64,000 bases of DNA from Candidatus Rokuibacteriota bacterium (GCA_044866005.1 JBIOTN010000067.1:15068-79067); one strand, 5' to 3'. Positions 19,369-38,066 are shown, numbered from the stretch's first letter. Numbers and translations are program-made. The notes: generated by a model from the sequence alone, not told the origin.

Positions 19369-19369
19369 G

Positions 19370-19876: not shown

Positions 19877-19916
19877 CGATCAGGGGCGTGAACCGAAAGG
19901 AGCTTCACGGAGAGAG

Positions 19917-24025: not shown

Positions 24026-24050
24026 GCGACGTCATGCACGGGAGCACGTC

Positions 24051-24914
24051 GTGAGGGACTCTCGAGGCGCGGCTCGGGAGGGACGCGTCGTCGAGGACGC
24101 GGCCGCGACGAAACCGGGCGGCACCCTCTCGCCCCTTCGCGGTCTGTGGGTGCCGAGCCTCGCCCTTCTCGGGGTCGCGCTCGTCGGCTGGACGGCCTGG
24201 ACCTACGGCGCCTTGAGGGGCCTCGAGTCCGCTGGCTTCGATGCGCCGTGGGCGCTCGCGGGCCTCGGATTCCTCGCCGGGGTCGGCGCCTTCTTCGCCC
24301 CGTGCGCGTTCGCGCTGTTCCCAGCCTATGTCTCGTACTACCTGAGCCTATCCGGCGAAGGCCGCACCGTCGGCCGGTCGCTCGGCCTGGGGCTCGCCTG
24401 CGCCGCGGGCAGTGCGCTGTTCTTCGGGCTGGTGGGGGGCGTGATTGCGCTGGCCGGCGGGGCGATCTCCACCTACTTGATCGCCGCGAAGCCCTTCGTG
24501 GCCCTCGGGGTTGTCGTGCTCGGTGCCGTGCAGCTTGCTGACGTCCGGATGCCGTCCCTGGCCCTGCCTTTTCCCCTGGACACCGGAGGCGCTCGCTCGG
24601 CGGGGGTCGCCGTGTTCCTCTACGGCTTCGGGTACGCGCTCGCGTCCACCGGCTGCACCTTGCCGATCTACGTCTCGATCACCGTCCTGCCGCTCACGAC
24701 CGGCTTCTCCGGGTCGGCTCTCTTGACCTTTACGGCCTTCGCCGTCGCGATGGCGAGCTTGATGCTCGTCACCACCGTCTTGGTGGGGCTCGCCAAGCGG
24801 AGGATCCTGGCCGCGCTTCAAGGGTCCACGGTCTGGATCAAGCGCGCTAGCGGCATCGTGCTCATCGCCGCGGGCCTCTACCTCGGCTACTACTACGTGA
24901 GAGCCGGAATGTGA
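24051..24914 (+). CDS. CcdA/DsbD-beta-family transmembrane electron transporter
   Basis: FFAPCAFALFP and STGCTLP Cys motifs; multiple TM segments; start approximate. Confidence 0.8.
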   Translation: MRDSRGAAREGRVVEDAAATKPGGTLSPLRGLWVPSLALLGVALVGWTAWTYGALRGLESAGFDAPWALAGLGFLAGVGAFFAPCAFALFPAYVSYYLSLSGEGRTVGRSLGLGLACAAGSALFFGLVGGVIALAGGAISTYLIAAKPFVALGVVVLGAVQLADVRMPSLALPFPLDTGGARSAGVAVFLYGFGYALASTGCTLPIYVSITVLPLTTGFSGSALLTFTAFAVAMASLMLVTTVLVGLAKRRILAALQGSTVWIKRASGIVLIAAGLYLGYYYVRAGM

Positions 24915-24937
24915 GCCGCCTCACAGGGAGACGACGC

Positions 24938-25246
24938 ATGCGACGTGTCGCCGGACTCATGGCGGTGCTGCTTCTGATGGCGTGGCTCACCGTGCCTGTC
25001 ACCGCCTTCGCGGCGACCAAGGTCGCCGTGATCGAGGTCAAGGGGATGGTCTGTCAGGCCTGACCCTTCTCGGTCAAGACAGCCTTGGAGAGGCTGCCGG
25101 GGGTGAGCCGAGCTGACGTGAGCCTCGAGAAGGCGGAGGCTCGGGTCGAGTTCGACGACGCGAAGATCTCGGCCGACAAGCTGGCCGCGGCCGTCGACCG
25201 GCTGGGCTTCCGCGCTCGGGTGCTCGCCGTCGAGCCAGGGGGGTAG
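24938..25246 (+). CDS. MerP-like periplasmic HMA protein, putative selenoprotein (GMVCQA-U-P; U42)
   Basis: Signal peptide ending AFA; TGA 25061-25063 replaces the second Cys of GMxCxxC; HMA fold continues to TAG 25246; hairpin 25080-25096. Confidence 0.85.
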
Positions 25247-25247
25247 C

Positions 25248-25514
25248 GTGCCGGTCGAGATCGAGCTCTTGACCGCGCCCGGCTGAGGGAAATGCGAGGC
25301 CGCCAAGGCGTTGGCGCTCGACGTGATCGACTCGGTCCGAGCGGAGTGCCATGATGTGTGGCTCACGGTCGTCGACGTCACGGAGCAGCCTGCCGTGGCG
25401 GTGAAGTACCGCGTGACGGCGACGCCCGCCATCGCGATCGACGGAGTCCTCGCCTTCCGCGGCGTCCCCCCAGCCCACGTCCTCCGCGACCGAATCTTGC
25501 AGGCGAAGGCGTGA
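25248..25514 (+). CDS. Small thioredoxin/glutaredoxin-like protein, putative selenoprotein (PG-U-GKC; U13)
   Basis: GTG 25248; TGA 25284-25286 gives UxxC; KYRVTATPAIAIDG cis-Pro motif; hairpin 25301-25316. Confidence 0.85.
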
Positions 25515-25568
25515 CTCGGTCTCGAAGAGCGGAGCCACAGCCCCCCTTTGGCTTGGCCACGATTTCAC

Positions 25569-25600
25569 TTGACTCTCCTCCCAGGAGGAGGGTTTAGCCT
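25569..25600 (+). promoter_or_regulatory. MerR-family promoter with 20-bp spacer
   Basis: TTGACT, dyad CTCCTCC-CA-GGAGGAG (25575-25590), TAGCCT; upstream of the second MerR gene. Confidence 0.75.
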
Positions 25601-25618
25601 CGGGTCAGGACGGGACAC

Positions 25619-26080
25619 ATGAGCGAGTTGAAGATCGGGGCGCTGGCCCGGCTCGCGGGCTGCACGGTCAAGGCCATTCGATTCTACGAGGCGAACGGCC
25701 TCCTTTTCGCCGCTGCGCGCAGCCCGGCCCGGTACCGGCTCTATACCGAGCGCGACCTCAGACAACTCCAATTCATCCAGCGTGCGAAGCTGATCGGGCT
25801 CCCGCTCACCAAGATCAAGAGTCTGGTCGTTCACGTGAGCGAGGAGCAGTGCGGGTGTCCCACGATCCGGCCTCAGCTGGAGCAGCTGATCCGCGAGCAG
25901 CTCAAGGAAGTGGGGGACAAGCTCGACCAGCTGGCGCTCCTCAAGCACGAGCTGGAGGGCTTGCTGGCAAAGATGCGTGGCGCCGTGCGACCACTTCCCC
26001 AAGAGCTCTGCGTGTGCGGCGCACAGCATCACTCGGGGTTTGTCGGACTCGTGAAGCTCAAGCAAGGAGGACGGCGATGA
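25619..26080 (+). CDS. MerR-family heavy-metal-responsive regulator
   Basis: LKIGALA, AIRFYE and RYRLY motifs; Cys in QCGCP and LCVC. Confidence 0.9.
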   Translation: MSELKIGALARLAGCTVKAIRFYEANGLLFAAARSPARYRLYTERDLRQLQFIQRAKLIGLPLTKIKSLVVHVSEEQCGCPTIRPQLEQLIREQLKEVGDKLDQLALLKHELEGLLAKMRGAVRPLPQELCVCGAQHHSGFVGLVKLKQGGRR

Positions 26081-26412
26081 ACAAGAGTCGGAAGTCACCG
26101 GGCCTGCCGGTCCTGCCCGCCCCGCGCACCGACTGCGGGGACGGCAGCTGCGGCTGTGGCTGCGGGATTCCGCTGGCCACGCCCAAGCCCACAAAGACCG
26201 GCAAGCAACGTACACGCCCGACCGGGGAAGGAGGAGCGAACATGGAGCCGGTGAGAATGTCGCTGTGCCATGAAGGTGCGGAGTGTCCGGAGGTGGTCGT
26301 CGAGCGAGACGAGGTTCGCATCGGCGAAGCCGGCAACCTGGCCGTGCTCAAGAAGGACGAGTGGAACATCCTCGTCGAGCTGATCCGATCGGGACAGCTG
26401 ACGCAGCTGTAG
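26077..26412 (+). CDS. Small Cys-rich protein (alternative start at 26242 gives a 56-aa protein)
   Basis: ATGA overlap with MerR stop; DCGDGSCGCGCG cluster; strong internal RBS AAGGAGG before ATG 26242 (SLCHEGAECPEV). Confidence 0.55.
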   Translation: MNKSRKSPGLPVLPAPRTDCGDGSCGCGCGIPLATPKPTKTGKQRTRPTGEGGANMEPVRMSLCHEGAECPEVVVERDEVRIGEAGNLAVLKKDEWNILVELIRSGQLTQL

Positions 26413-26434
26413 AGTCGCGCGACGGAGAGCTCTC

Positions 26435-26578
26435 ATGGCACTGAAGAAGGGAGAGCGCTACCGCTGCCCGGATCCGAAGTGCGGCTGCGAGATCGAGGTC
26501 ACCAAGGGCGCCGCGCCGGGCCAGGGCGGCGATCTGAACCCGCGTTGCTGCTGCGGCAAGGAGATGCAGCGCGTGTGA
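26435..26578 (+). CDS. 47-aa desulforedoxin-like metal-binding protein
   Basis: MALKKGERYRCPDPKCGCEIEVTKGAAPGQGGDLNPRCCCGKEMQRV; RBS GGAGAG; below the ORF-track cutoff. Confidence 0.75.
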   Translation: MALKKGERYRCPDPKCGCEIEVTKGAAPGQGGDLNPRCCCGKEMQRV

Positions 26579-26638
26579 CGGGACGGGGTGCGGGACAATG
26601 GCCCCGCCCCCCGGTGCTCCGGGCAGAGGGACGCAGCA

Positions 26639-28081
26639 TCAGCGTCGTACGCGCCTCGTAGGCAGCAGGGCCCGACTCAGGTGGCGATTCCAGCTCCCGT
26701 AGCGCTCTCGGATCGCGCCCCGGGGGAGCGCCAGGAGGATCACGGCGGCGCCGATGATCATGTCGTTCGACGTCGCACCGACATTCGAGCCGGCGAGCAC
26801 CCAGGGCGCGACGACGAGCCAGGCCCCGACAACGACGTTGACGAGGCGCAAGGGGCGGGCCACTTCCGCCGTCACGATGATGGCCAAAGTCAGGATCAAC
26901 GCCCCTCCGATGTGGTCGCTGTCCGCAGCCGGGCCCTCGGCCTGGACCACGGCGGGCGCCGCCATCAGCCAGACGCCAAGCGCCGCGCTGACCAGGAGAG
27001 TCCAGGGAGCGCCGATCCCCCACAGCATGGCCGGGACGATCCGGGAGATCGGTGACCCGTAGCGCGGGGTTCGGAGATCCTTGCCCTCGCGCTCGGTCGT
27101 GCCGCCCACCCAGAACGTCCACCAGAAGGGCTTCCCCTCCCGGACACTCTGGGCGAGGAACTGTCCCATCGCGACGACCTCGTCGAGCGTCAGGGGAATC
27201 ATCAACAACATGAGGAAGGCCGCCGCCAGACAGAGGGTGCACCACTGACCGACGATGACGGGCTGGAGAATGACCAGCACGATGTGGGTGATGCCGAGCG
27301 GGACGACGAGGATCCCGAAGAACGTCACCATCCATGGCATCGTGCGCCACCGAGTCTGGCCGCCCATGTAGCCCATGAGGGCTTCGAACGTATAGGCCGC
27401 CGCGCCCAGCCCCGCGTCCGAGATCGGCCAGGCACGCGAGACCTCCGAGTGGAGGACGCGCATGGTGCCTTCACCGAAGAACGGTTCCCAGGCGACGTCG
27501 ACATAGCCGAGCTGGACGGCGGCCAGATAGCGGGAGATGAACCAGCCGGCGAAGGCGAGCGCGATGATGGGCGTCCGCTGGAGCCAGGAAGACGGATTGT
27601 ACGTCCATCCGGGCGGGATCTCCGGGCCGGGCTTCATCATGACCAGATGATGGGCCGCGCCCGGCATCATGGGCACGAGCACCGAGAAGGTGATTGCCAG
27701 CGCCCCGACCAGGGTATCGTTGACGTAGGCGACCGGGCGTGGCGCCCAGAAGAGGAGCGGCGCAAACTGCAGCCACACGCCGACGAGACACACCGCCCAG
27801 CGCCCCGCGAAATCCAGGCGCGGCAAGAGCGACAGCGCGCCGAAGCACGCGAGCAGCGCCCCGCTGATCGTGTCGCTCCACGCGGTCGCCGCGCTTTCGT
27901 AGCCGAACGTGGCGGGACTACCGATCAGCCATACGCCCAGCACCGCGTTCGTCACGTTGGTCCAGAGCCATTTCGCGCGCTGCTGCCGGATCATCTCCAG
28001 ATGGTCTCGAGCGTGTTCCTGCACCCCGTCCCGCGGGAGTGGCGCGGCAGGGGCGGCGTGCTCGGGACCTCGCCGGCTCAT
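26639..28081 (-). CDS. Vitamin K epoxide reductase-family membrane protein with SPW repeats
   Basis: GWTYNPSSW, QWCTLC CxxC, repeated GVWLxxxP helices. Confidence 0.8.
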   Translation of the reverse strand: MSRRGPEHAAPAAPLPRDGVQEHARDHLEMIRQQRAKWLWTNVTNAVLGVWLIGSPATFGYESAATAWSDTISGALLACFGALSLLPRLDFAGRWAVCLVGVWLQFAPLLFWAPRPVAYVNDTLVGALAITFSVLVPMMPGAAHHLVMMKPGPEIPPGWTYNPSSWLQRTPIIALAFAGWFISRYLAAVQLGYVDVAWEPFFGEGTMRVLHSEVSRAWPISDAGLGAAAYTFEALMGYMGGQTRWRTMPWMVTFFGILVVPLGITHIVLVILQPVIVGQWCTLCLAAAFLMLLMIPLTLDEVVAMGQFLAQSVREGKPFWWTFWVGGTTEREGKDLRTPRYGSPISRIVPAMLWGIGAPWTLLVSAALGVWLMAAPAVVQAEGPAADSDHIGGALILTLAIIVTAEVARPLRLVNVVVGAWLVVAPWVLAGSNVGATSNDMIIGAAVILLALPRGAIRERYGSWNRHLSRALLPTRRVRR

Positions 28082-28096
28082 CGGGCTCTCGCGGCT

Positions 28097-29176
28097 CTAA
28101 GCGGCCGTCCGGTCGAGCGATGACGGCGGCTCGAGCTTGTTCGCGCGATACCAGCCGAGGGGGTCGGCCTCGAGCGCGGCGATCATCTTGGGGAGCGTGC
28201 CTCCGAGCGAACGCTTCGGCTCCCAGCCGAGCAGGGTGCGCGCCCGGGTGATGTCGAGGGCGTAATGGTCGTCGGCGAGGTCGATCATCCACGGCTTGAT
28301 GAACGGCTCGTCGCCCAGGGGCATCTGATCCTGGACCCAGGCGCCGGCCTTGGCCAGGGCCTTCGGGATCTCGCGCGTCTCCCACTCTTCCCCGTGGATC
28401 AGCCGACCGAGCGTGTGTTGCAGCTCGTCGTAGCTGAGCGTCGCCGGCTCTCCCACGAGCAGCGGCAGCTCCGGCGGCAGCTCGGCCCGGCGCTCGACGA
28501 CCCTGAGGAAGGCCTCCACCAGATCCTCGAGGTGGACGAACGCCTGTCCGTGCGAGATGGCGCCGGGAAAGACGCGACTCGTGACCCGGCGCTCGTAGAT
28601 CCGCTGAATCTGGCGCGCGAGCGGGATCGAGTGGCACCGGTCATCGTAGACGCCGGCGATCCGCAGGAGCACCGCGGGGATGTCACCGCGCTCGGCGCGG
28701 ATGAGTCGCTCGGTCGTGACTTTCGACTCGGGGTAGTCCCACTTGGGCTCGAGCGGCCAATCTTCGTTGATGCGCTGACCGGGTGCGCAAGGCGCATGGA
28801 CGAGCATGGTGCTGGAGAACACGAACTGCTCGACCTGGAAGCGCTTGACGGCCCGAAGCAGCCGCTCGGTTCCTCGGATCGTAATCTCCTCGTATTTCGG
28901 GCTCGGCTCGCCGGAGAAGTCGTAGTACGCGGCGAGGTGGATGATCGAGGCGACGCGCTCGCCGTGGCGGGCGCGGACGCCGGCGAGGGCGCGGTCGACG
29001 CTCTCGTCCGAGGTGAGGTCGACGCGCACGCAGCCGGCGGTAGGTGGCGGCTCGGGCGGGTCGTCACGGTCGAAGCCCACGGTCGTGACGCGTTCGGTGA
29101 GCCTCTTGGCCGCCGCATAGCCGATGAGTCCGCTGCTCCCCGTGACGATCACGACCCCCGGCGATCGCGAGTCCAT
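28097..29176 (-). CDS. NAD-dependent epimerase/dehydratase
   Basis: VTGSSGLIG, IHLAAY, FSST and YPESK motifs. Confidence 0.88.
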   Translation of the reverse strand: MDSRSPGVVIVTGSSGLIGYAAAKRLTERVTTVGFDRDDPPEPPPTAGCVRVDLTSDESVDRALAGVRARHGERVASIIHLAAYYDFSGEPSPKYEEITIRGTERLLRAVKRFQVEQFVFSSTMLVHAPCAPGQRINEDWPLEPKWDYPESKVTTERLIRAERGDIPAVLLRIAGVYDDRCHSIPLARQIQRIYERRVTSRVFPGAISHGQAFVHLEDLVEAFLRVVERRAELPPELPLLVGEPATLSYDELQHTLGRLIHGEEWETREIPKALAKAGAWVQDQMPLGDEPFIKPWMIDLADDHYALDITRARTLLGWEPKRSLGGTLPKMIAALEADPLGWYRANKLEPPSSLDRTAA

Positions 29177-29201
29177 GTGGCCTCCACCCGCTGACGGATG
29201 G

Positions 29202-29543
29202 CTACGGTTTGGGCGGCTGCTTGCCCGGGCTCATCATTCCGCCCGTCATGCCCCCCGAGCCCATGCGGCCCATCATCTCCATCATCCGGGTCATGCCGGC
29301 CATGACGTCGCCGTTTCCCATCTGGCGGGCCATGCGCATCATCCCGTCCATCAGCTTGGCCGCGCGGCCGGACTGCAAGAGGTCCTGCATGGCGCGCCGG
29401 CCTTCCTCGCTCATGCCCCCGCCCTGCATCATCTCGACGCAGGCCGCCTGGGGGTCGGCCGGCGCCTGTTGAGCGCGAGCGGTGGGGACGGCGAGCAGGG
29501 CCAGGAGCGCGGGTCCCAGGATCGTCACTGTCCGCAGTGTCAT
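29202..29543 (-). CDS. Secreted Met/Gly-rich protein
   Basis: RBS AGGAGG; signal peptide ending ARA; about 20 Met in 113 aa. Confidence 0.75.
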   Translation of the reverse strand: MTLRTVTILGPALLALLAVPTARAQQAPADPQAACVEMMQGGGMSEEGRRAMQDLLQSGRAAKLMDGMMRMARQMGNGDVMAGMTRMMEMMGRMGSGGMTGGMMSPGKQPPKP

Positions 29544-29657
29544 GGTCGATCCTCCTGTCGACGCCGGTGCGTGCGGTCCGTAACCCTGCAAAGCGGGTAC
29601 CGCCGATCGCCCGGTTTGCGTGCGCCGGGACGCGAAGGATGGTAAGCTACCGGCCAG

Positions 29658-29987
29658 ATGGGGAAGCGGAGTCACCCCGCCGTTCCGATGACCCCGGCTC
29701 TCGCCGCCGTGCTGGCGGTCGTGGTCGCCGGCTTCTGCCTCGCCATCGAGGCCGGGACGGCCCACGCCGCAGGCGACGGGTGTCCGGCCTCGGAGTCCTC
29801 GCCCCGGTTCTGCGCGCAGGCCGGTCCCGGCGATCAGGCGGTTCCGGGGCTGACCGTGGCGGCACTGGTGCCGCCGCCGGGGCCCGAGCTGGGCGACTGG
29901 CTGCCCGTCTCGGCCGCGCCGCCGCCGGCCGTCCGCTTCCACGCGGACGTCTCCCGCCCCCGCGCGCCCCCGCTCCTTCCCGCCTAG
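29658..29987 (+). CDS. Secreted leader protein with C-terminal RAPP motif (DUF2946/CutF/CruR-like; putative arrest peptide)
   Basis: Signal peptide (AHA), Cys residues, Pro-rich linker, ...SRPRAPPLLPA stop; first gene of a Cu/redox operon. Confidence 0.6.
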   Translation: MGKRSHPAVPMTPALAAVLAVVVAGFCLAIEAGTAHAAGDGCPASESSPRFCAQAGPGDQAVPGLTVAALVPPPGPELGDWLPVSAAPPPAVRFHADVSRPRAPPLLPA

Positions 29988-30102
29988 TCGCTCGATCTCG
30001 CTCGTTGGGATACCGGCCGCCGCGGACGGCGGCCAGGCTCGAGACTCGTCGCTCGACGTCATCGGACGACGTGTCCGTGGGCGCGTGGCGGAGGCGTGAA
30101 CT

Positions 30103-30651
30103 GTGCGCGTGCAGCGGATTGCAGGCGGTCGGCCACACGTGGGGCTCGTCCTCGCGTTGCTCGTCTCCGTCTCGCCCGCGACGGTGTCGGATGCGACCGA
30201 CGTCCGGCCGGCCGTCGGGCATCGCGCGCCCGATTTCGTCCTCCGCGATCCGGACGGCCAGCCGGTCGAGCTCTCCCGGATCCTCGGCGAGCACGCCGTC
30301 CTCCTCAACTTCTGGGCGACCTGGTGTCCGCCGTGCCGCGAGGAGATGCCGACGATGGAGCGGGCGTACCGCGACTACAAGGCGCGCGGGCTCACGGTCC
30401 TGGCCGTGAGCATCGACGCCGGCAGTGAAGCATCCGTCAGGGCGAAAGTGAAGGCGTTCATGAAGGAGCTGAAGCTCACGTTCCCGGCCGTGCTGGACGT
30501 CGAGGGCGAGGTCGTGCGCCGCTACCGGCTGCGCGGCCTCCCCACGACGTTCCTGATCGACCGGACGGGCATGATTCGATCGGAGGAGCTCGGGTTCCGG
30601 GACTGGAGCGATGCCGCGGCGCGAAGGAAGCTGGACGCCCTGCTGAAATGA
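30103..30651 (+). CDS. TlpA/ResA-like thiol-disulfide oxidoreductase
   Basis: APDFVL, LLNFWATWCPPCREEMP and LPTTFLID motifs. Confidence 0.92.
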   Translation: MRVQRIAGGRPHVGLVLALLVSVSPATVSDATDVRPAVGHRAPDFVLRDPDGQPVELSRILGEHAVLLNFWATWCPPCREEMPTMERAYRDYKARGLTVLAVSIDAGSEASVRAKVKAFMKELKLTFPAVLDVEGEVVRRYRLRGLPTTFLIDRTGMIRSEELGFRDWSDAAARRKLDALLK

Positions 30652-30661
30652 GTCCCCGCCC

Positions 30662-31429
30662 ATGGCGCTGATTCACGAGCTGATGCGGAGCTGGTACCTG
30701 GTGCTGAGCCGGTTGAGCGCCGCGCTCACCGTCCCGGTGAGCGACCTCGCCGACCGGATCGAGCTCCCGCTCCTCACGGTGCTGCTCTTCGGCGTGGTCG
30801 GCGCGATGGCGCCCTGTCAGCTCACGACGAACCTCTCGGCGATGGCCTACGTCGGGAGCCGCGCCGGCGAGGGCCGGCCCTGGCGCGAGACGCTCGCCTA
30901 CCTCGCGGGGAAGGCCCTCGTCTACACGCTGGTCGGCGCCGCCGTCTTCGCGGTCGGCCGGGAGCTCCAGGCGGCGGCCATTCCCGTGGCCATGGCGGCG
31001 CGAAAGGCGCTCGGGCCCCTCATGATCCTCATCGGCCTGGGGCTGCTGGGGCTCTACCGGCTGCGCGGCTCGCTCGGCGGTCGGCTCTCCGCCTGGCTGC
31101 GGACCCGGGCACCGCAGCGCGGCGCGTGGGGCGCCTTCCTGCTCGGCGTGGCCTTTGCCGGGAGCTTCTGTCCCACGCTCTTCTGGCTCTTCTTCGGCCT
31201 GACGATCCCGCTGGCCCTGCGGAGCGCGGCCGGGTGGAGCTTCCCGGCGGTCTTCGCGGCCGGCACCACGCTGCCCCTCGTCGCGTTCGCCGGGCTGCTC
31301 GCGCTGGGGCGCGAGGCCGGCGGGCTGGTCGAGCGCCTCCAGCGCTCCCACGGGCTCGTGCACCGGATGGCGGGGGTGGTGATCATCCTGGCGGGGATCA
31401 ACGACACGCTGACGTACTGGGCGCTCTGA
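30662..31429 (+). CDS. CcdA/DsbD_2-like membrane protein
   Basis: APCQLTTN and SFCPT Cys-Pro motifs; multiple TM segments. Confidence 0.8.
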   Translation: MALIHELMRSWYLVLSRLSAALTVPVSDLADRIELPLLTVLLFGVVGAMAPCQLTTNLSAMAYVGSRAGEGRPWRETLAYLAGKALVYTLVGAAVFAVGRELQAAAIPVAMAARKALGPLMILIGLGLLGLYRLRGSLGGRLSAWLRTRAPQRGAWGAFLLGVAFAGSFCPTLFWLFFGLTIPLALRSAAGWSFPAVFAAGTTLPLVAFAGLLALGREAGGLVERLQRSHGLVHRMAGVVIILAGINDTLTYWAL

Positions 31430-31459
31430 GACACGGCACGCTGAAACGGAGGATCTGAC

Positions 31460-31963
31460 ATGTCGAGGATCGAGCGAGAGCGAATCGGGGCGGCGGGCGG
31501 GGAGAACGGCGCGGGGACGGCCGGCCCGGGTGGCGGCGCGCGCTACTGTGCCGTGTGCGGGACGGCGGTGGGCGGCGAGAGTCCCCCGATCGAGCGCTTC
31601 GGCGAGCCGTTCTGCTCCGAGGCGCACGCGGCGGAGTTCGTCGACCGGGTGCGGGGCGCCCGGGTCCAGGCCGCGGCGAGGCCGCCGGCCGCGGGCAGCG
31701 CGTGTGCCATGGGTGCAGGCGACGCCGCCGCGCCGGGACAGCGCGGGAAGGCGACCCTCGGGCGGGCGCTCTGCTGGGGCGCGCCGCTCCTGGTCCTCGG
31801 CGTGCTGCTGGTCGGCGGCACCGGCGCGCTGGCGGGGGCGGCCGGCGCCCTCCTGCCCGCGCTCGCGATCCTGGCCTGCCCGCTCGGGATGTACCTGATG
31901 ATGCGCTCGATGTCGAAGATGGGCCACCAGGACGACCGCGGCGACACGGATGGCCGGAAGTAG
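31460..31963 (+). CDS. Membrane protein with YHS/TRASH-like N-terminus and DUF2933-like C-terminus
   Basis: YCAVCG...FCSEAH; LACPLGMYLMM. Confidence 0.6.
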   Translation: MSRIERERIGAAGGENGAGTAGPGGGARYCAVCGTAVGGESPPIERFGEPFCSEAHAAEFVDRVRGARVQAAARPPAAGSACAMGAGDAAAPGQRGKATLGRALCWGAPLLVLGVLLVGGTGALAGAAGALLPALAILACPLGMYLMMRSMSKMGHQDDRGDTDGRK

Positions 31964-32030
31964 CGCCGGCCGTGCGCCGGGCGCGAGCGCTCGCCCTGAC
32001 GGCACGGTCGAGTAAAAAGGGGCGCGACGC

Positions 32031-32651
32031 GTGAAGCTCTACGAGCGGTACGTGTTGCCGTGGCTGATCCACCTGGCCATGCAGACCCGCGTGCACACCG
32101 CGGAGCGGGCGCGGTTCGTCCCCATCGCCACCGGGCTGGTCCTCGAGGTCGGGGTCGGCTCGGGGCTCAACCTGCCCTTCTATGGCCCGAAGGTCGCGCG
32201 GCTCTACGCGCTCGACCCCTCACGAGAGCTCTGGCGGCTGGCGCGCCGGCGGCTGCGAGCGGTCGCGTTCCCGGTCGACTATCTCGCGGCCTCGGCGGAG
32301 CAGATTCCCCTGGACGACGGGAGCGTGGACTCCGTCGTGAGCACGTGGACCCTCTGCACGATCCCGGATCCCGCCAGCGCGCTCGGCGAGATCAAGCGCG
32401 TCCTGAAGCCGGACGGGCGCTTCGTCTTCGTCGAGCACGGACGGGCGCCCGAGCCGGGCGTGCGCCGCTGGCAGCAGCGGCTCGACCGGGTCTGGCCGCG
32501 GATCGCGGGGGGCTGCCACCTCGGCCGCCAGATCGACGACGTGATCGCCGGAGCCGGGTTCCGCGTGGCGCAGATCGAGCGCGGGTACACGCCGGGCTTG
32601 CCCCGGCCGTTCGGATACCGGTTCAAGGGGCTCGCCCAGCGCCCCGACTGA
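32031..32651 (+). CDS. Class I SAM-dependent methyltransferase
   Basis: VLEVGVGSGLN, TLCTIPD, RVLKPDG and GGCHL motifs. Confidence 0.9.
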   Translation: MKLYERYVLPWLIHLAMQTRVHTAERARFVPIATGLVLEVGVGSGLNLPFYGPKVARLYALDPSRELWRLARRRLRAVAFPVDYLAASAEQIPLDDGSVDSVVSTWTLCTIPDPASALGEIKRVLKPDGRFVFVEHGRAPEPGVRRWQQRLDRVWPRIAGGCHLGRQIDDVIAGAGFRVAQIERGYTPGLPRPFGYRFKGLAQRPD

Positions 32652-32667
32652 CCAACGGGAGGAAGAC

Positions 32668-33570
32668 GTGCGAAGACGCATACTGAGCTGGTTTCGGGTC
32701 GTAGGAGCGGGGGCGGCGCTGCTCGGGGCGACAGGGCTTGCGTCCGCCGCCTCGCAGCATCCTGGCACGGCGAGCTCGACGTTCGAGCATGTCCACGCCC
32801 TGGCGATGGACGCCGAGGGCCGGACGCTCTGGCTCGGGACTCACGCCGGGCTCTTCCGGACCGAAGGCGGGGGACGGTCGTGGGAGCCGGTGGCGCTGCC
32901 TGTGCCGGCGGGCCACGCCGACATCATGACGGTGACCACCGACCCGGGCGATTCCCGGGTGCTCTACGCCGCCACGCACGATGCCGGGGTCTTCAAGAGC
33001 GTGGACGGCGGGGCGACGTGGAAAGCCGTGAACGCCGGCCTCGGCGGGCTGGACGTCCACGGGCTCGCCGTCGACCCGAACACGCCGTCGAAGCTCCACG
33101 CCGCCGTGCGGGACAAGGGCGAGGGGATCTATCGGAGCACCGATGGCGGCGGCAAGTGGACGCGCGTGGACGATGGACCCGGCGGCGAGGTCAAGGTCCT
33201 GGCCTCGGTCAACATGCCGACGGGGATGGGCGGCATCTGGCTGTACGCGGGCACGGCCGAGGGGCTTCAGCGGAACCCCGACTGTTTCTGAGGGTGGAAG
33301 CTCATGGCGGGCGGTCTGCCCGCCGGAAAGACGGTGAACGGCTTCGCGGTGGATCCCACCAATCCGCGCCTGATGTACGTCGCGATGCGGGACGGCCTCT
33401 TCCGCAGCACGGATGGCGGCGAGAGCTGGAAGCCGGTAGGTAAGGGGCTCCGGGACATGGCGGTCGTGGTCGTGAACCCGAAGCGGCCGGCCGAGGTCTA
33501 CGCGGCGACGACCGATGGGATGATCTACCGGAGCGCCGACGGAGGAACCACGTGGGAACGCCGGAAGTGA
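32668..33570 (+). CDS. Secreted Asp-box/BNR beta-propeller protein, putative selenoprotein (PDCF-U-GW; U208)
   Basis: SxDGGxxW repeats on both sides of an in-frame TGA at 33289-33291; hairpin 33306-33324; signal peptide; HVHAL and DVHG His motifs. Confidence 0.75.
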
Positions 33571-35096
33571 CGACGCTGTCGCGGCGGGACTTCCTCCGCC
33601 TGTCGGGCGGGGCCGGGGTCGGCGCCGTGGCCTTCTCGCTCGGCGGCGGCGTGCTCTCCCGCGCGGGCGCCGCGCCGGCCGGCGGGCGGGGCGTCCGGGA
33701 GATCCGGCTCGAGGCGAGCGACCTCACGTGGGAGCTCGCACCGGGGAAGCGCGTCAAGGCCATGGCCTACGGCGGCCAGGTCCCGGGGCCGGAGCTGCGG
33801 GTCAAGGAAGGCGAGCGCGTGCGCGTCATCCTGACGAACCGCCTCGCCGAGCCGACGACGATCCACTGGCACGGGGTGGACGTCCCGAACGCCATGGATG
33901 GCGTGCCGGCGGTCACGCAGAAGCCGGTGCCGCCCGGCGAGAGCTTCGTCTACGAGTTCGAGGCGCGGCCCGCCGGGACGCGCTGGTACCACACGCACGC
34001 CGACGAGCATCGGCAGCTGGACCTCGGTCTCGCGGCGCCGTTGATCATCGAGCCGGCGACCGCCGAGCCCTTCCCCTTCGACCGCGAGTACACGCTCGTC
34101 CTCGACGACTGGGCGACCGGGACGGGTCCGGCATTGCCGCCGACGCGCGAGGGGATCGCCGGCGCGCGCGGCGGCATGGGCGGGATGATGGGCCGAATGG
34201 GCGGCGGCATGGGCCGCATGATGGAAGGGATGATGGGCCGGGGCGGCATGGGCGGGATGATGGGCGGCCAGATGTCGGGACGCGGGCACGAGCCGGCCTA
34301 CGACACGATGACGATCAACGGCAAGGCCTACCCGGCGACGACCCCGCTCACCGTGCGGAAGGGCGAGCGGGTCCGCCTGCGGCTGATCAACGCCAGCGCC
34401 GACCACACGCACGTGATCCGGCTCGCCGGCCACCGCCTCCGGGTCACCCACACCGACGGCAATCCGCTCGTCCAGCCGGTCGAGGTGGACGCGATCCCGA
34501 TCGCGCCCAGCGAGCGCTACGACGTCCTGTTCGTGGCCGATCGGCCGGGCGCGTGGTTCCTCCACTGTGTGCAGACCGGTCACCCGGGCGCGGGCGAGCA
34601 GGTCGCCGTGGTGTACGAGGGGCACGAGGGCGAGAGACCCGACCCGCCGGCCGGGGGCGTGGCCGGGCTCGACCTCTGGCAGTACGGGCTCGGCCGGGGC
34701 CGGGACGTGCTGCCGCGCGCGTGGGGGGGCGAGCGCGCGTTCGACCTCCTGCTGAGCGGCGGCATGATGGGCTCGGACGCCTGGACGATCAACGGCAAGC
34801 AGTACCCGCGCACGGATCCACTGCGCGTCCGGAAGGGCGACCGGGTCCGCGTCCGGTTCGAGAACCACAGCATGGAGGCGCACCCGATGCACCTCCACGG
34901 GCAGTCGTTCAAGGTCCTCGCCGTCAACGGCGCCCGGTACGCGGCCCCCATCGTGAAGGACAGCGTGGACGTGGACGCTCACATGGGCTCGGTCGTCGTC
35001 GAGTTCACCGCCCACAACCCCGGCGACTGGTTCCTCCACTGCCACAAGCCCATGCACATGGAGGGCGGCATGATCACCCTCGCCCAGATCGCCTGA
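33567..35096 (+). CDS. Tat-exported multicopper oxidase with Met/Gly-rich insert
   Basis: SRRDFL Tat motif; IHWHG, WYHTH, HPMHLHG and HCHKPMHMEGGM motifs; GTG start overlaps the upstream stop. Confidence 0.92.
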   Translation: MTTLSRRDFLRLSGGAGVGAVAFSLGGGVLSRAGAAPAGGRGVREIRLEASDLTWELAPGKRVKAMAYGGQVPGPELRVKEGERVRVILTNRLAEPTTIHWHGVDVPNAMDGVPAVTQKPVPPGESFVYEFEARPAGTRWYHTHADEHRQLDLGLAAPLIIEPATAEPFPFDREYTLVLDDWATGTGPALPPTREGIAGARGGMGGMMGRMGGGMGRMMEGMMGRGGMGGMMGGQMSGRGHEPAYDTMTINGKAYPATTPLTVRKGERVRLRLINASADHTHVIRLAGHRLRVTHTDGNPLVQPVEVDAIPIAPSERYDVLFVADRPGAWFLHCVQTGHPGAGEQVAVVYEGHEGERPDPPAGGVAGLDLWQYGLGRGRDVLPRAWGGERAFDLLLSGGMMGSDAWTINGKQYPRTDPLRVRKGDRVRVRFENHSMEAHPMHLHGQSFKVLAVNGARYAAPIVKDSVDVDAHMGSVVVEFTAHNPGDWFLHCHKPMHMEGGMITLAQIA

Positions 35097-35169
35097 CGAT
35101 GTCGGACGGACGGCGAGGAGGCGAGGGCGGGAAGTCGCCGCATGGGCCGCTCGGGAGGAGGCCGACACC

Positions 35170-35745
35170 GTGAACCTGTCACGCTGGGGTTGGGGTTCCC
35201 GCGCCTCCCGGCTCGGATTGTTGGTGCTGGTGGGCCTGGCGGCGCCGGCGCTCGCGGCCTCGGGGCCCGGCGACGCGCCCAGGGACCCCTTCGACACCAT
35301 GGGCGTGCACCGTCCGGCGGAGCCGGCGCCGGCTCCGGATCTGGCCTTCCGGTCGCTGGACGGTCGCGAGGCGCGCCTGCGCGACCTCCGGGGCAAGGTG
35401 GTCCTCCTCGGTTTGTTCCGGACCGACTGACCCAACTGCCGGCGGGAGGCTCCCGCCAAGGCGGCGCTGTATCGGGCGTTCCGGGCAAAGGGACTGGAAG
35501 TCGTGGGACTCGACCTGGGGGAATCGGCGGAGATGGTCCGAGCCTTCGCGAGAGAGTTCCAGGTGACGTTCCCCATGTGGCTCGACCCCGCGGGCCAGAG
35601 TCCGGCGGCCCTCGGCGTCTACGGGCATCCCAACACGATCGTCATCGACCGCGAGGGCCGCATCGTCGGCCGCGTCCGGGGCGAGCGTGACTGGGGCACC
35701 GACGACGCCCGACGTCTGGTCGAGGTCCTGTTGAGCCGCCGATGA
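35170..35745 (+). CDS. TlpA/AhpC-TSA-like redoxin, putative selenoprotein (RTD-U-PNCRRE; U87)
   Basis: LRGKVVLL...U-PNC-RREAP aligns with paralog WCPPCREEMP; frame continues through HPNTIVIDREG to 35745; hairpin 35441-35457. Confidence 0.87.
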
Positions 35746-36482
35746 CCCGGAAAACGGGGCTGGCCAGAATGCCGCGAGCGGCGTGGCTCGCCGGCCTCGT
35801 CGTCCTGCACGCCGCCGTCGCCGCCGTGGCGACGTGGATGGCGGTCACCGGGCAATGGCCCCGCGCGCTGGGGCTCGGAGCGGCCGGCGAGTCCACGCCG
35901 GCGACCCTGGAGACGCTCGGCCGGTACGGCGAACTGCCGGACTTCCGGCTGACCGAGCGGAGCGGCGACAGTGTGAGCCGGGCCGACCTGCTCGGGAAGG
36001 TCTGGGTGGCGAACTTCGTCTACACGCAGTGCACCGAGACGTGCCCGCTGCAGACGGCCGAGATCGCGCGACTCCAGGCCGAGTTCGTGGGGGAGGCGGA
36101 CTTCCGGCTCGTCTCGATCACCGTGGACCCCGAGCGGGATGACACGGCGGCCCTGTCGCGCTACGCGGAGCGCTACGGAGCGGACAGGCAGCGCTGGCTG
36201 TTCCTCACCGGGGACAAACGCGCGATCTACCGCCTCGCCAAGGACGGCTTCCGCCTGGGCGTCGTCGATCCCGACGACCCCGGAGCGAGCCAGACGAGCC
36301 TTCTCCACTCCTTCTCACCGGCCGCGGCGTGGGCGACCCACGGCTCCCAGGGCCTGATCATGCACAGCTCCCGGTTGGTGGTCGTGGACCGGACCGCGAC
36401 GATCCGCGCCTATCACCTCCCCGACGACCCGCAATCGCTCGCTCGTCTCCGGCGGAACGTGCGGAGCGTGCTCCACCCGTGA
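35742..36482 (+). CDS. SCO/SenC copper chaperone
   Basis: FVYTQCTETCP (CxxxC), ITVDPERD, WLFLTG and IMHS motifs. Confidence 0.9.
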   Translation: MTRKTGLARMPRAAWLAGLVVLHAAVAAVATWMAVTGQWPRALGLGAAGESTPATLETLGRYGELPDFRLTERSGDSVSRADLLGKVWVANFVYTQCTETCPLQTAEIARLQAEFVGEADFRLVSITVDPERDDTAALSRYAERYGADRQRWLFLTGDKRAIYRLAKDGFRLGVVDPDDPGASQTSLLHSFSPAAAWATHGSQGLIMHSSRLVVVDRTATIRAYHLPDDPQSLARLRRNVRSVLHP

Positions 36483-36615
36483 ACCAGCTCTGGAGGCTCG
36501 GCCGCTGGGCGGCCGCTGGCCTGGTCGTCGCCGTCGTGGCCAAGGTCAGCCTGGAGATCATGCGCGGCGGCCCGGGCCGCCACAACGTCGAGGCGGTGCG
36601 CGACGCGCGCGGCGG

Positions 36616-37200
36616 ATGAGGTCGCCGATGCCTCGCCTCGGAAAGTACGCCATGGTGCTCGTCCCGGCCGTCGGCCTGATCGGGCTCCTCGCCTATGGCT
36701 TTAGCCGGGACCCCCGCGACATCCGCTCGCCGCTCCTCGGGCGCCCCGCCCCGCCGCTGTCGCTGACGCTCTTCGACGGCAGCCGGTTCGTCCTGGCCCA
36801 GCAGGCGGACAAGGTCGTCGTCGTGAACTTCTGGGCGTCCTGGTGCCTGCCGTGCCGGGACGAGGCGCCGCTCCTCGAGGCCGCCTGGGTCGCCTACCGG
36901 GAGCGCGGGGTCGTCGTGGTCGGGGTAAACTTTCAGGACGCGGAGCCCGCCGCGCGCGCCTTCCTCGGTGAGTTCGGCCTGACGTACCCGAACGGGCCCG
37001 ACGCCGGTGGGCGGATCGCGATCGGCTACGGCGTCTACGGGATCCCCGAGCTGTTCGTCATCGGGCGGGACGGGCGGATCGCGTACAAGCACATCGGCGC
37101 GATCGGGGGGACTGTGCTCGTGGCGAAGGTCGAAGAGGCCCTCCGCGGCACGGTCAGCGCGAGCGAGGGGCGGAGCGGGCGCTATCAACCGATCCGGTGA
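36616..37200 (+). CDS. TlpA/CcmG-like thiol-disulfide oxidoreductase
   Basis: VVNFWASWCLPCRDEAP and YGVYGIPE motifs; N-terminal anchor. Confidence 0.9.
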   Translation: MRSPMPRLGKYAMVLVPAVGLIGLLAYGFSRDPRDIRSPLLGRPAPPLSLTLFDGSRFVLAQQADKVVVVNFWASWCLPCRDEAPLLEAAWVAYRERGVVVVGVNFQDAEPAARAFLGEFGLTYPNGPDAGGRIAIGYGVYGIPELFVIGRDGRIAYKHIGAIGGTVLVAKVEEALRGTVSASEGRSGRYQPIR

Positions 37201-37217
37201 CCGAAAGGAGCCACTCG

Positions 37218-37706
37218 GTGTCGCAGGACGATCGGAACGTCGAGCGATCGCGCATCACGCTGCTGGCCGGAGGCCTCGCCCTGGCGCTCACCCTGGCGAC
37301 CCGGCGGGAATCTCGCGCGGCGCCAACGCCCTTTCCCGAGGTCATGGTCTACAAGACCCCGACCTGACGCTGCTGCGACGCGTGGGTGGGGCACCTGCGC
37401 CAGCACGGGTTTTCGGTGACGGTCGAGAATCGCACGGACCTCCGGCCGATCAAGGCGAAGCACGCGGTGCCGGCCGAGCTCCAGACCTGTCACACGGCGC
37501 TCGTCGGCGGCTACGTCGTGGAAGGGCACGTGCCGGCCGACCTGATCGTCCGCCTGCTCCGCGAGCGGTCGCCGGTGGCCGGCCTCGCCGTCCCCGGGAT
37601 GCCGGTCGGGTCGCCCGGGATGGAAGTGCCGGGGAGCCCGGCGGCCAAATATCAGGTCTTCAGCTTCGACCGGAGCGGCAAGACGACGGTGTTCGCGAGC
37701 CGGTGA
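37218..37706 (+). CDS. DUF411 (CopG-like) periplasmic metal-binding protein, putative selenoprotein (YKTPT-U-RCC; U50)
   Basis: RBS AAGGAG; signal-like N-terminus; TGA 37365-37367 at the first Cys of the family CxCC; TCHTA, EGHVPA and PGMPVGSPGME motifs; hairpin 37380-37400. Confidence 0.85.
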
Positions 37707-37712
37707 GACGGC

Positions 37713-38066
37713 ATGGCGGGAGCCGGTCGCCGCGGCGTGCTGGTCGGTTTCGGTCTCGCGGCCCAGGTCCTGGGCGCGGTGGGCCCCGCCGGGGCGACGC
37801 CGCTCCAGAACCTGGCCGACGACCAGGTCGTCCGGACGATCCGCTACTGCCGCGGCGAGTACCGGCTCACCATGGCGAGCGGCGCGCGCCGGCGCTTCCC
37901 CGAGTTCAACCTGCGCTTCAAGACCGATGGCAGCCGGGAAGGCCCGGAGCGCGGCCGGCCGGTGTTACTGCCGGCCGGGATGCAAGGGGACCGCGGGCAG
38001 GTGATCTTCAGCGGCCCGGAGGAGCTCAGGCGCTTCCTCGTCGAGGGGTGTGACGGCACGCCGTAG
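37713..38066 (+). CDS. Exported hypothetical protein
   Basis: RR-containing signal; NLRFKTD...GMQGDR; two Cys; operonic spacing. Confidence 0.6.
   Translation: MAGAGRRGVLVGFGLAAQVLGAVGPAGATPLQNLADDQVVRTIRYCRGEYRLTMASGARRRFPEFNLRFKTDGSREGPERGRPVLLPAGMQGDRGQVIFSGPEELRRFLVEGCDGTP

Follow-up and report, generated by a model that had tools for sequence, protein, structure and literature searches.

The selenocysteine-assisted organometallic (SAO) system is a precedent for a metal-related cluster of several selenoproteins, as outlined in the accessible part of its description (Haft 2022, bioRxiv 10.1101/2022.07.06.499078). A 2026 catalogue of 119 selenoprotein families already holds HMA, TlpA/ResA-like and small thioredoxin-like kinds, and very large selenoproteomes have been reported for Methylomirabilota. 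The window analysed here is a stretch of 64,000 nt from Candidatus Rokuibacteriota bacterium (GCA_044866005.1, JBIOTN010000067.1:15068-79067), a soil-dwelling member of the Rokubacteria with a genome G+C content of 72.6%. Five neighbouring candidate selenocysteine (Sec) genes for copper handling and thiol redox were found there (Table 1). ORF lists and translation agreed with the original prediction in that each of the five is split by one in-frame TGA; four have a hydrophobic N-terminal signal-like segment, judged by eye, and the thioredoxin-like protein is without one. Of the Cys-only paralogues expected in the island, those with motifs WCPPC, WCLPC, CSFC (in CopA) and CEGC (in CopZ) were found. 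The five TGAs are almost certainly read as selenocysteine, judging by sequence, and probably they are Sec codons in envelope copper-handling and thiol-disulfide genes, with three modules side by side. By alignment, the predicted Sec replaces a functionally defined Cys in four of the genes, and in the fifth, a beta-propeller, it shares a remodelled Asp-box turn with a Cys.

Table 1. Genes of the island and its upstream module, with in-frame TGA codons and the hairpins 3' of them (window coordinates). Family assignments of HMA, BNR/Sortilin-Vps10, AhpC-TSA/Redoxin and DUF411 are from Pfam profile search.
Feature	Position	Strand	TGA	Hairpin	Basis or remark
Upstream copper-efflux module: MerR-type regulator, Cu(I) P-type ATPase, DUF7482 protein, CopZ	16516..20123	+			Pfam
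CcdA/DsbD_TM-like membrane protein	23916..24914	+			Pfam DsbD_TM 27.4 bits, at cut-off
Exported MerP/CopZ-like HMA protein, GMVCQAU	24911..25246	+	25061-25063	25080-25096, loop GGA	Pfam HMA 1.2e-12
Small thioredoxin-like protein (MJ0307/MTH895 type), PGUGKC	25248..25517	+	25284-25286	25292-25324	TIGR00411 46 bits
MerR-family metal-responsive regulator	25619..26080	+			Pfam MerR_1/MerR-DNA-bind
Cys-type TlpA/ResA-like oxidoreductase, WCPPC	30103..30651	+			Pfam AhpC-TSA 1.5e-32
DsbD_2-family membrane protein	30662..31429	+			Pfam DsbD_2 2.9e-18
Protein with Cys/His-rich N-terminal segment and C-terminal DUF2933 membrane domain	31460..31963	+			Pfam DUF2933, weak
SAM-dependent methyltransferase (Methyltransf_11)	32031..32651	+			Pfam 1.7e-23
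Exported BNR/Asp-box beta-propeller, PDCFU	32668..33573	+	33289-33291	33305-33325, loop GGUCU/GUC	Pfam BNR/Sortilin-Vps10
TAT-signal multicopper oxidase, Met/Gly-rich insert	33552..35096	+			Pfam Cu-oxidase_2/_3, Cu-oxidase, TAT_signal
Exported TlpA/ResA-like oxidoreductase, UPNC	35170..35748	+	35428-35430	35441-35457, loop GGC	Pfam AhpC-TSA/Redoxin 9e-22
SCO1/SenC copper chaperone, CTETC	35742..36482	+			Pfam SCO1-SenC 6.5e-25
Cys-type DsbE/ResA-like oxidoreductase, WCLPC	36616..37200	+			Pfam Redoxin 6.8e-22
Exported CopG/DUF411 protein, URCC for CxCC	37197..37709	+	37365-37367	37380-37400, loop GGG	Pfam DUF411 9.4e-25
Conserved small exported protein, no known family	37713..38066	+			Orthologs beside DUF411
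YtkA-like and CopD-like membrane protein	38050..38958	+			Pfam YtkA 8.5e-5, CopD 1e-3, both under cut-offs

As far as the accessible text on SAO goes, the island shares with it several different selenoproteins in one conserved neighbourhood, Sec at presumed heavy-metal-contacting sites, export of some selenoproteins, and a thioredoxin-like member. The island families are unrelated to those of SAO, however, and include neither a MerB-like lyase nor an ABC importer of the SAO type; its hosts are aerobic or soil Rokubacteria, whereas SAO hosts are anaerobes, its context is copper, and its modules are looser. With that neighbourhood published, and Sec forms of HMA, TlpA-like and thioredoxin-like proteins catalogued, the claim that no such clustered system had been described finds no support in that form. 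Two families are new with respect to the 119-family inventory, CopG/DUF411 with UxCC and a six-Asp-box BNR propeller with CxU. Relatives do not keep the 13-kb block together as a whole; three modules recur in them. The island is a mosaic of these, namely Trx-CcdA-HMA, propeller-oxidase-SCO-TlpA, and CopG with its small partner. Among 80 DUF411 loci, other island genes lie near in 7 only.

CopG holds a Cu4 cluster by CxCC and two Met residues, and an oxidase is encoded in the same cutFOG operons, according to the available part of the source (PMC7558416). The island DUF411 protein is of the same family as CopG/CutG (PF04214; Pseudomonas aeruginosa CopG, 6WIS/6WJE; Rhodobacter capsulatus cutFOG) and resembles them in its export, its conserved CxCC column and GMPxGSPGME segment, and a multicopper oxidase in the cluster. 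Its CxCC differs in starting with a predicted selenocysteine. Alignment to PDB 6WIS (1.7e-29, residues 50-167) places U at the first Cys of CGCC, the predicted Sec standing in for the first Cys of the CopG copper-cluster motif. One TGA is present in 57 of 74 DUF411 matches in the phylum; at loci across phyla, the Sec column holds TGA in 22/80 and Cys in 58/80, and Sec-DUF411 is found in at least five phylum-level groups. In the place of cutF, the island has the conserved partner of 117 residues, which had no match in Pfam and NCBIfam searches; its orthologs (58-67% identity) adjoin DUF411 in loci L024/L066 and L026/L068. As proposed for CopG/CutG, Sec-CopG, the small partner and the oxidase would interconvert or hand over Cu(I)/Cu(II).

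The propeller shares its fold with the BNR/Asp-box group (Ycf48, GH74 domains, 3B7F, NF045728 F510_1955 family). It is above the Pfam BNR cut-off and below that of NF045728 (129 against 175); five of its Asp-boxes are canonical, and the sixth is rewritten to D-C-F-U within a remodelled turn (N-P-D-C-F-U-G-W). The AlphaFold2 model (pLDDT 87.3) resembles GH74, Ycf48 and 3B7F propellers in Foldseek (E 1e-13 to 1e-15). Unlike these propellers, it is encoded in a fixed position beside a multicopper oxidase gene, whose start overlaps the propeller gene end by 22 nt. This oxidase, with 252 bits against TIGR01480 copper_res_A, is under the cut-off. Of 181 genomes in the order, 29 have a propeller ortholog, with TGA in every case; both genes co-occur in 23 genomes, i.e. 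23/29 with the propeller and 23/28 with the oxidase. The oxidase was detected in the cluster at 17 of 20 propeller-ortholog loci, being the directly adjacent detected gene at 12 and separated by a propeller paralogue only at 2 more. In the texts consulted on selenoproteins and copper proteins, no description was seen that links the BNR fold to multicopper oxidases. The Sec-propeller would act with the oxidase; it may present Cu(I) or be a maturation or redox partner.

SCO, DsbD_2, TlpA and the DUF2933 protein also recur around the propeller orthologs, the WCPPC protein included. A relative of the DUF2933 protein was detected at 15/20 loci; in 8 it lies upstream of the propeller with no other detected gene between, and in 6 more a single detected gene separates the two; a methyltransferase relative was detected in 4/20 clusters.

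Electron transfer from TlpA to ScoI and from CcdA to ResA follows established pathways (Bradyrhizobium, Bacillus; PDB 1JFU, 4TXO, 3C71). The island has the same anchored thioredoxin-fold reductase, here directly upstream of SCO1 and overlapping its start by 7 nt, and CcdA/DsbD-type membrane proteins in the cluster. In the alignment with PDB 3C71, U matches the leading Cys of the ResA active-site motif, the predicted Sec taking the position of the N-terminal (attacking) Cys of CxxC; the motif differs in this Sec (UPNC) and in the absence of the usual Trp residues before it. Sec TlpA/redoxin forms are already catalogued, so the island protein is one more member. The Sec-TlpA, fed by the DsbD_2 protein, would hold SCO1 in the reduced state, the part that Cys-TlpA plays for ScoI. 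The DsbD_2 protein may be a thiol transporter of the CcdA kind or else a permease resembling ArsG; its best score is against the arsenical efflux permease family (NCBIfam ArsG, 159 bits, cut-off 200), and electron transfer is therefore not the sole reading. The WCLPC protein scored 102.7 bits against TIGR00385 dsbE, under the cut-off.

From known roles of the Cys homologues and conserved gene order, a relay from CcdA through redoxins to chaperones/SCO and the oxidase is plausible. Selenolates have a low pKa and are soft and easily re-reduced, for which reason, as is proposed here, such sites would stay active in a copper-loaded, oxidising periplasm. It is possible, if rather doubtful, that the selenoproteins are real but that the cluster mainly builds copper enzymes, SCO1/TlpA loading the oxidase and CuA-type centres, with no detoxification and no single relay. 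The modules do recur separately, and SCO1 with TlpA-like partners and oxidase with CopG are known maturation sets (PMC7558416, available part). Two P-type ATPases, CopZ, MerR-type regulators, a Met-rich periplasmic protein and a CopD-like protein within 28 kb, on the other hand, point to resistance or homeostasis, and the two readings are not exclusive.

In the Trx-CcdA-HMA module, the stop of the CcdA-like gene overlaps the HMA start, and the thioredoxin-like gene has a GTG start one base past the HMA stop. The CcdA-like protein, without match in an NCBIfam search, has Cys in two PC/CxxP-type transmembrane motifs; its start is uncertain, the true one being probably further downstream. Like NF041115 and the MerP/CopZ proteins, the island HMA protein combines the HMA fold, a signal peptide and Sec in the metal-binding motif. 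It scored 85.3 bits against NF041115 'UxxU metal-binding (seleno)protein' (cut-off 95). Close relatives within the order carry UxxU, whereas its own predicted Sec is the second metal ligand of CxxC only (CxxU); orthologs have CxxU, UxxC or UxxU, with U/C swaps at both ligand positions. It differs from NF041115 also in being linked with a Sec-thioredoxin as well as a CcdA-like protein. This thioredoxin-like protein also matches TIGR00412 and PDB 1FO5; the U of its UGKC falls on the first Cys of the 1FO5 motif CPHC, the predicted Sec taking the N-terminal (attacking) position of CxxC. The CcdA-like gene stands beside Sec-HMA and an adjoining P-type ATPase in loci L156, L159 and L163, with Sec-Trx as the third member of the triad in L159 and L163 and none detected in L156. 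Electrons of the cytoplasmic Sec-thioredoxin would pass to the CcdA-like protein and keep the periplasmic Cys/Sec pair of HMA reduced, and HMA would hold Cu(I) close to a CopA-type efflux pump.

That this module serves mercury or another soft metal is unlikely. HMA reached 71.5 bits against MerP, under the cut-off, the NCBIfam family closest to it, NF041115, bears the label 'putative mercuric reductase' in a 2026 review, and MerR-type regulators are adjacent (25619..26080 is under the cut-offs of the ZntR, CueR and CadR models). Pfam profile search of the island showed no merA, merT or merB, however, and the neighbouring ATPase passes the cut-off of the Cu(I) family TIGR01511 ATPase-IB1_Cu (463.5 bits against 397). 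In the copper-efflux module, CSFC is in the HMA domains of this ATPase. It is the neighbour genes that suggest copper, and not mercury or silver, as the metal.

The genome has the complete Sec machinery called for by the original prediction: a tRNA-Sec gene (76 bits, anticodon TCA) adjoined by selA (595 bits) and selB (382 bits), and a Sec-type selD (392 bits) with an in-frame TGA of its own. In distinct ortholog sequences, TGA occupies one fixed column in HMA 8/8, Trx 10/10, propeller 14/14, TlpA 9/9 and DUF411 26/26, counts from related genomes that are not independent samples. These columns hold across genera, and the frames past TGA stay open with 50-75% identity. The Sec/Cys pairing anticipated for all five was found for HMA, Trx-like, TlpA and DUF411; no Cys-type counterpart of the propeller was found, its four full-length non-Sec relatives having neither the Cys nor the Sec (Leu at the Sec column in P0003), so its Sec reading draws on conservation. 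Soil-metagenome contigs span all five sites, with no change there among the differences listed; the sites in HMA, Trx-like and propeller genes are spanned in one run, which comes from a second study, and those of TlpA-like and DUF411 in another sample.

Under selenium limitation, Sec codons can be decoded as cysteine, and all Sec calls here are made from sequence; nevertheless, reading of UGA as one of the standard residues (Trp, Gly, Cys) through a suppressor or changed code is highly improbable. TGA is the commonest ordinary stop (1885/3052 long ORFs), which argues that the code is not reassigned, the tRNA-Sec lies beside selA and selB, and recoding is found only at redox/metal positions of the Cys type, with a hairpin after each. 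That the TGAs are nonsense mutations or sequencing or assembly errors in broken genes has practically no probability left: gene callers and databases do take them as stops, as had been foreseen (115 of the best 120 propeller relatives are listed at 185-246 residues, as the frame ends about there at TGA), but five independent mutations are implausible with TGA in one and the same column of all distinct ortholog sequences examined, TGA in 29/181 genomes (propeller) and 57/74 matches (DUF411), a conserved downstream frame, the same letters in contigs of two soil-metagenome runs, one from a second study, and the Sec machinery.

For selenocysteine reading, a G+C-rich hairpin was found at all five TGAs as predicted, beginning 8-19 nt downstream, and a sixth stem of the same sort is at 5753. 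Among random in-ORF sites, 10% have such a stem of 7 bp and 1.8% one of 9 bp; against these controls, the joint probability that all six stems reach 7 bp or more is about 3e-8, and their common occurrence is thus unlikely to be accidental. Single-sequence folding z-scores were not significant for any of the five hairpins at this genome G+C content, and consensus folding of 26 DUF411 sequences retained a 4-bp stem alone. The hairpins are kept at synonymous sites, also at codons that look rare at 72.6% G+C, TTG and AGG in the HMA stem for example. In a TlpA paralogue group, the stem is at the same place with a different sequence.

The source assembly is 4.67 Mb in 247 contigs, is 94% complete and has a G+C content of 72.6%; the window is C67:15068-79067 of this assembly. 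A copper-related block spans roughly 10.4 to 39 kb of the window. It carries a YHS/HMBD P-type ATPase, SCO1, a MerR-type regulator, a Cu(I) ATPase scoring above the ATPase-IB1 cut-off, a DUF7482 protein, CopZ, a MacB-like ABC system, and the region of five neighbouring genes each split by a single in-frame TGA, as was seen in ORF lists made with and without TGA readthrough. Cys-only paralogues are present alongside (TlpA-like proteins with WCPPC and WCLPC, HMA domains with CSFC and CEGC), as had been stated. A signal-like hydrophobic N-terminal segment was recognized by eye in four of the five products and is absent from the thioredoxin-like protein.

Features of the window, with the in-frame TGA and its motif where present (U, Sec)
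Feature	Coordinates (strand)	TGA	Motif	Family match
OsmC-like gene	5561-6028 (+)	5753	AAVAG-U-MTGTL	catalogued family
HMA protein	24911-25246	25061	GMVCQAU	Pfam/NCBIfam
Small thioredoxin-like protein	25248-25517	25284	PGUGKC	NCBIfam
Small Cys-rich ORF	26092-26412 (+)		CGDGSCGCGCG	none
Small Cys-rich ORF, 47 residues	26435-26578 (+)		CPDPKCGC…CCCG	none
SPW repeats fused to VKOR domain	26639-28081 (-)			
Small exported Met/Gly-rich protein	29202-29480 (-)			
DsbD_2 membrane protein	30662-31429			
SAM-dependent methyltransferase	32031-32651 (+)			
BNR propeller	32668-33573	33289	PDCFU	Pfam/NCBIfam
TAT-signal multicopper oxidase	33552-35096			
TlpA/ResA-like protein	35170-35748	35428	UPNC	Pfam/NCBIfam
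SCO1	35742-36482			
DUF411 protein	37197-37709	37365	URCC	Pfam
Small partner	37713-38066			
SAM-dependent methyltransferase	40284-40901 (+)			

The five TGAs are very likely decoded as Sec. The machinery on which this depends is encoded in the genome: tRNA-Sec (76 bits, anticodon TCA), SelA, SelB, and SelD. The selA and selB genes directly adjoin the tRNA-Sec gene, and selD itself carries one interrupting TGA. TGA is the ordinary main stop codon of the genome, since it closes 1885 of 3052 long high-GC3 ORFs. At the TGA sites that they span, soil-metagenome contigs agree letter for letter, none of the differences listed falling there; one run comes from a second study.

In all distinct ortholog sequences aligned at residue level from the fetched loci, the stop is always TGA and always in the same column (HMA 8/8, thioredoxin-like 10/10, propeller 14/14, TlpA-like 9/9, DUF411 26/26), and conserved coding sequence persists past it, so the conservation expected by the original prediction was found. 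Of 251 genomes from the order or the phylum, 65 have a DUF411 match; among the 74 matches listed, 57 have one TGA, one has two, and 16 have none. The best 41 HMA matches include 38 with one to three TGAs, one of these also with TAG, and three that are TGA-less, the site not being covered in two of the three. A propeller ortholog is present in 29 of 181 genomes (28 at E<=1e-100, one partial), with the TGA in all 29. Each of the three closest orthologs of the TlpA-like gene (51-59% identity) has one TGA, as do all five thioredoxin-like matches from 61 genomes. The unpublished genomes G217, G218, and G076 are counted in the genome tallies for DUF411, HMA, propeller, TlpA-like, and oxidase genes, and G217 loci are also among the residue-level alignments of TGA sites; every claim is supported beyond these three. 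Motif variants of the HMA orthologs (CxxU, UxxC, and UxxU) and a PDUFU propeller paralogue are informative. Pairing of Sec with Cys in homologues, predicted for all five, holds for the HMA, thioredoxin-like, TlpA-like, and DUF411 proteins and fails for the propeller, which has no Cys there in its non-Sec relatives.

A G+C-rich hairpin with G in the loop starts 8-19 nt 3' of each of the five TGAs, in agreement with the original prediction. At random in-ORF sites the chance of such a stem is 10% for 7 bp and 1.8% for 9 bp, and the joint chance of all six stems, that of the OsmC-like gene at 5753 included, is about 3e-8. Shuffle z-scores from single-sequence folding at the TGA hairpins are not significant. 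The stems are kept at synonymous positions within the order, and a TlpA paralogue group has a stem at the same place with a different sequence. The cross-phylum RNAalifold consensus for DUF411 has only 4 bp, with three GC-to-AU exchanges.

A rough genome-wide scan (coding-like flanks and a nearby Cys, candidates judged by eye) pointed to about 30 more plausible selenoprotein genes, among them AhpD-like CxxU, TlpA-like WATWUPxC, UGSC, ArsC-like, DsbA-like, rhodanese, and SelW-like proteins and a second Sec-HMA. This agrees with the 63 predicted selenoprotein genes of one Methylomirabilota MAG that are mentioned, citing Deng et al. 2026, in a 2026 review (PMC13188914). In the window, the OsmC-like gene has its TGA at a conserved Cys position and probably represents a sixth selenoprotein.

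The DUF411 protein scored 86.5 bits against PF04214 (cut-off 27), and no NCBIfam model matches it. It is related to Pseudomonas CopG (PDB 6WIS, E 1.7e-29), with U at the first Cys of CGCC; U-R-C-C aligns with C-G-C-C, the GMPVGSPGME segment is conserved, and the predicted first Cu ligand is Sec. The structure of CopG was reportedly described by Hausrath and co-workers in 2020. A cross-phylum scan with one genome per species kept 80 loci from 572 confirmed relatives, and the TGA column reads TGA in 22 of them and Cys in 58. Records of the Sec form are labelled Rokubacteria/Methylomirabilota, Binatia, "delta proteobacterium" MAGs, Chloroflexi (4 loci), Gemmatimonadota (3), and Vicinamibacterales (1). 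According to a review (PMC7558416, section 6.5), CopG binds a Cu4 cluster via CxCC and two Met, helps copper resistance without oxygen, and partners an oxidase in cutFOG operons. By analogy, Sec-CopG would bind a Cu4 cluster and cooperate with the oxidase in the same way, with a selenolate ligand. Sec-type and Cys-type CopG within one bacterial order are a natural experiment on selenium's contribution to copper binding; as they stand side by side there, a direct test of what selenium adds is possible. The small partner is an exported protein without known family, encoded beside DUF411 in relatives; an apparent in-frame TGA in its L026/L068 orthologs proved to be the terminal stop.

The propeller scored 41.1 bits against Pfam BNR (cut-off 27) and 129.3 bits against NF045728 (F510_1955 family), below the cut-off of 175. 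Its AlphaFold2 model (pLDDT 87.3, pTM 0.82) was matched by Foldseek to BNR propellers, e.g., GH74 domains, Ycf48, and 3B7F. The sequence has five canonical Asp-boxes, and the sixth place reads N-P-D-C-F-U-G-W, where non-Sec relatives have an Asp-box-like S-x-D/E-x-S/G-x-x-W. By sequence, the predicted Cys-x-Sec pair is part of an Asp-box turn, a kind of turn that is usually surface-exposed. Four full-length non-Sec relatives have neither Cys nor Sec (e.g., ADYSRSW), and in one entry the Sec column reads Leu. H43, H59, H104, and H131 are nearly invariant in the blades of the family; they may make up a second metal site, distinct from the CxU turn. Annotation cuts the gene, as had been anticipated: 115 of the best 120 database relatives are listed at 185-246 residues, which is about the TGA position, and every Sec-form entry among the relatives listed is shortened. 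Locus L050 (683-1438, G229:C182) carries a propeller paralogue in tandem with the ortholog; it has two TGAs (PDUFU) and 46% identity to the window protein.

The start of the multicopper oxidase gene overlaps the end of the propeller gene. Gene order was compared around 20 propeller orthologs, up to 8 kb on each side as the contigs allowed, against the proteins of the island. In 17 of the 20 loci the oxidase gene shares the cluster; it is the immediate neighbour among the detected genes in 12, and in 2 more a propeller paralogue alone intervenes. Among 181 genomes the propeller is present in 29, an oxidase ortholog in 28, and both in 23, a co-occurrence that is descriptive only because related genomes are not independent; two more oxidase genomes have propeller fragments beside the oxidase. 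Five non-Rokubacterial genomes carrying Sec-CopG gave no propeller match at E<=1e-20. Since it sits beside the oxidase in relatives, the propeller is best read as a putative oxidase partner, and the pairing suggests an oxidase accessory factor not yet known. An oxidase ortholog beside the propeller in locus L155 (6598-8016, G174:C15:19644-21035) has one in-frame TAG, which may be a sequencing error or mark a broken copy.

The HMA protein scored 85.3 bits against NF041115 (UxxU metal-binding (seleno)protein; cut-off 95). That family has UxxU with two Sec, whereas the window protein has CxxU. A +1 frameshift in this gene was not confirmed; a single frame leads from GTG 24911 (or ATG 24938) through the signal peptide into the domain. 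The second Sec-HMA, outside the window at about 2946-3149 of contig C82, has the motif GMTUGSC (UxxC type) and 41% identity to the window HMA protein. The thioredoxin-like protein is below the cut-offs of TIGR00411 (46.4 against 92.75) and TIGR00412 (31.8 against 62); it matches the MJ0307 thioredoxin 1FO5 (9.5e-9), U pairing there with the first Cys of CPHC. The TlpA-like protein has a Pfam AhpC-TSA/Redoxin match, a thioredoxin fold with CxxC-type motif, and is predicted to be anchored or exported. It is below the cut-offs of the NCBIfam ResA and TlpA models and matches ResA 3C71 (5.8e-20), where its U falls on the first Cys of the motif.

Between 30103 and 38958 all genes are on the same strand with gaps of -22 to +133 nt, and so they probably form one or two operons. 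The propeller loci recurrently carry SCO1, DsbD_2, and TlpA-like genes, with Sec-TlpA directly after the propeller in three. A relative of the Cys/His-rich DUF2933 protein is in 15 of 20, in 8 as the nearest detected upstream gene. In L156, L159, and L163, Sec-HMA has as its neighbour a CcdA-like gene that also adjoins a P-type ATPase; L159 and L163 have Sec-thioredoxin as the third member of a triad, and none was detected in L156. Coordinates place the pair or triad in G236, G248, and G209 as well. Other island genes are near DUF411 in only 7 of 80 loci, of which three are Rokubacterial with small partner, propeller, or close oxidase and four have a distant oxidase only. On the gene order around these 80 and 20 loci, the whole island was rejected as one conserved unit; what recurs of the predicted synteny is three modules (thioredoxin–CcdA–HMA; propeller–oxidase–SCO–TlpA; CopG with the small partner), and the island is a mosaic of them.

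ScoI is reduced by Cys-TlpA, and ResA-type reductases are fed by CcdA. Sec-TlpA and SCO1, whose genes overlap, would match this scheme together with the DsbD-type membrane proteins nearby. The signal-less Sec-thioredoxin could be the donor, the CcdA-like protein the conduit, and the exported Sec-HMA the acceptor in a trio that, next to the efflux pump, would hold the Cys/Sec metal site of HMA in its reduced state. As a whole, the relay is a reasonable but putative model, every step of which we infer. A wider reading is possible but rather doubtful: the Sec-propeller would be a dedicated periplasmic oxidase partner, a new copper/redox accessory factor working via the Cys-x-Sec pair in its Asp-box turn, and it would join Sec-CopG, Sec-HMA, and Sec-TlpA in a copper-trafficking chain, most hand-over steps of which would bring the metal into contact with selenium instead of sulfur.

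Most of what is known of selenocysteine concerns redox enzymes; here it would stand where copper chaperones and a copper-cluster protein have their metal ligands. Such Sec genes are missed or given a wrong size in copper-resistance surveys of soil metagenomes. A full-text literature search for Rokubacteria selenoproteins found nothing relevant, its single match, judged by title, being on another phylum. Selenoproteomes of groundwater MAGs were reportedly treated by Deng and co-workers in 2026 (Cell Rep). Full-text searches for a Sec form of CopG/DUF411 brought up no paper on it, and the candidates of Deng et al. 2026 may overlap with the families described here. The 119-family inventory of May 2026 (PMC13188914, Table 1) lists the UxxU HMA family NF041115, several TlpA/redoxin and Grx/Trx-like UxxC families, and OsmC-like proteins; DUF411/CopG and the BNR propeller are absent from it. 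New here are thus two uncatalogued selenoprotein families and the propeller–oxidase pairing, and the other Sec families are known. The view that no such clustered system had been described is not supported in that form, with Haft's SAO as precedent, which has several selenoproteins in one metal-related neighbourhood.

Several other genes of the window were noted. The two SAM-dependent methyltransferases are paralogous; the first is directly upstream of the Sec-propeller and has a relative in 4 of 20 ortholog clusters. The family that the DsbD_2 protein fits best is ArsG, of arsenical efflux permeases (159 bits, below cut-off), and the protein may be a transporter and not an electron conduit. 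The SPW–VKOR (vitamin K epoxide reductase-like) fusion, between the reductive modules, is an oxidative disulfide-forming enzyme. The two Cys-rich ORFs that follow the MerR-type regulator gene may encode small proteins that bind metal. The Met/Gly-rich protein (…MMRMARQMGNGDVMAGMTRMMEMMGRMGSGGMTGGMM…) has relatives in two propeller clusters, L146 and L164.
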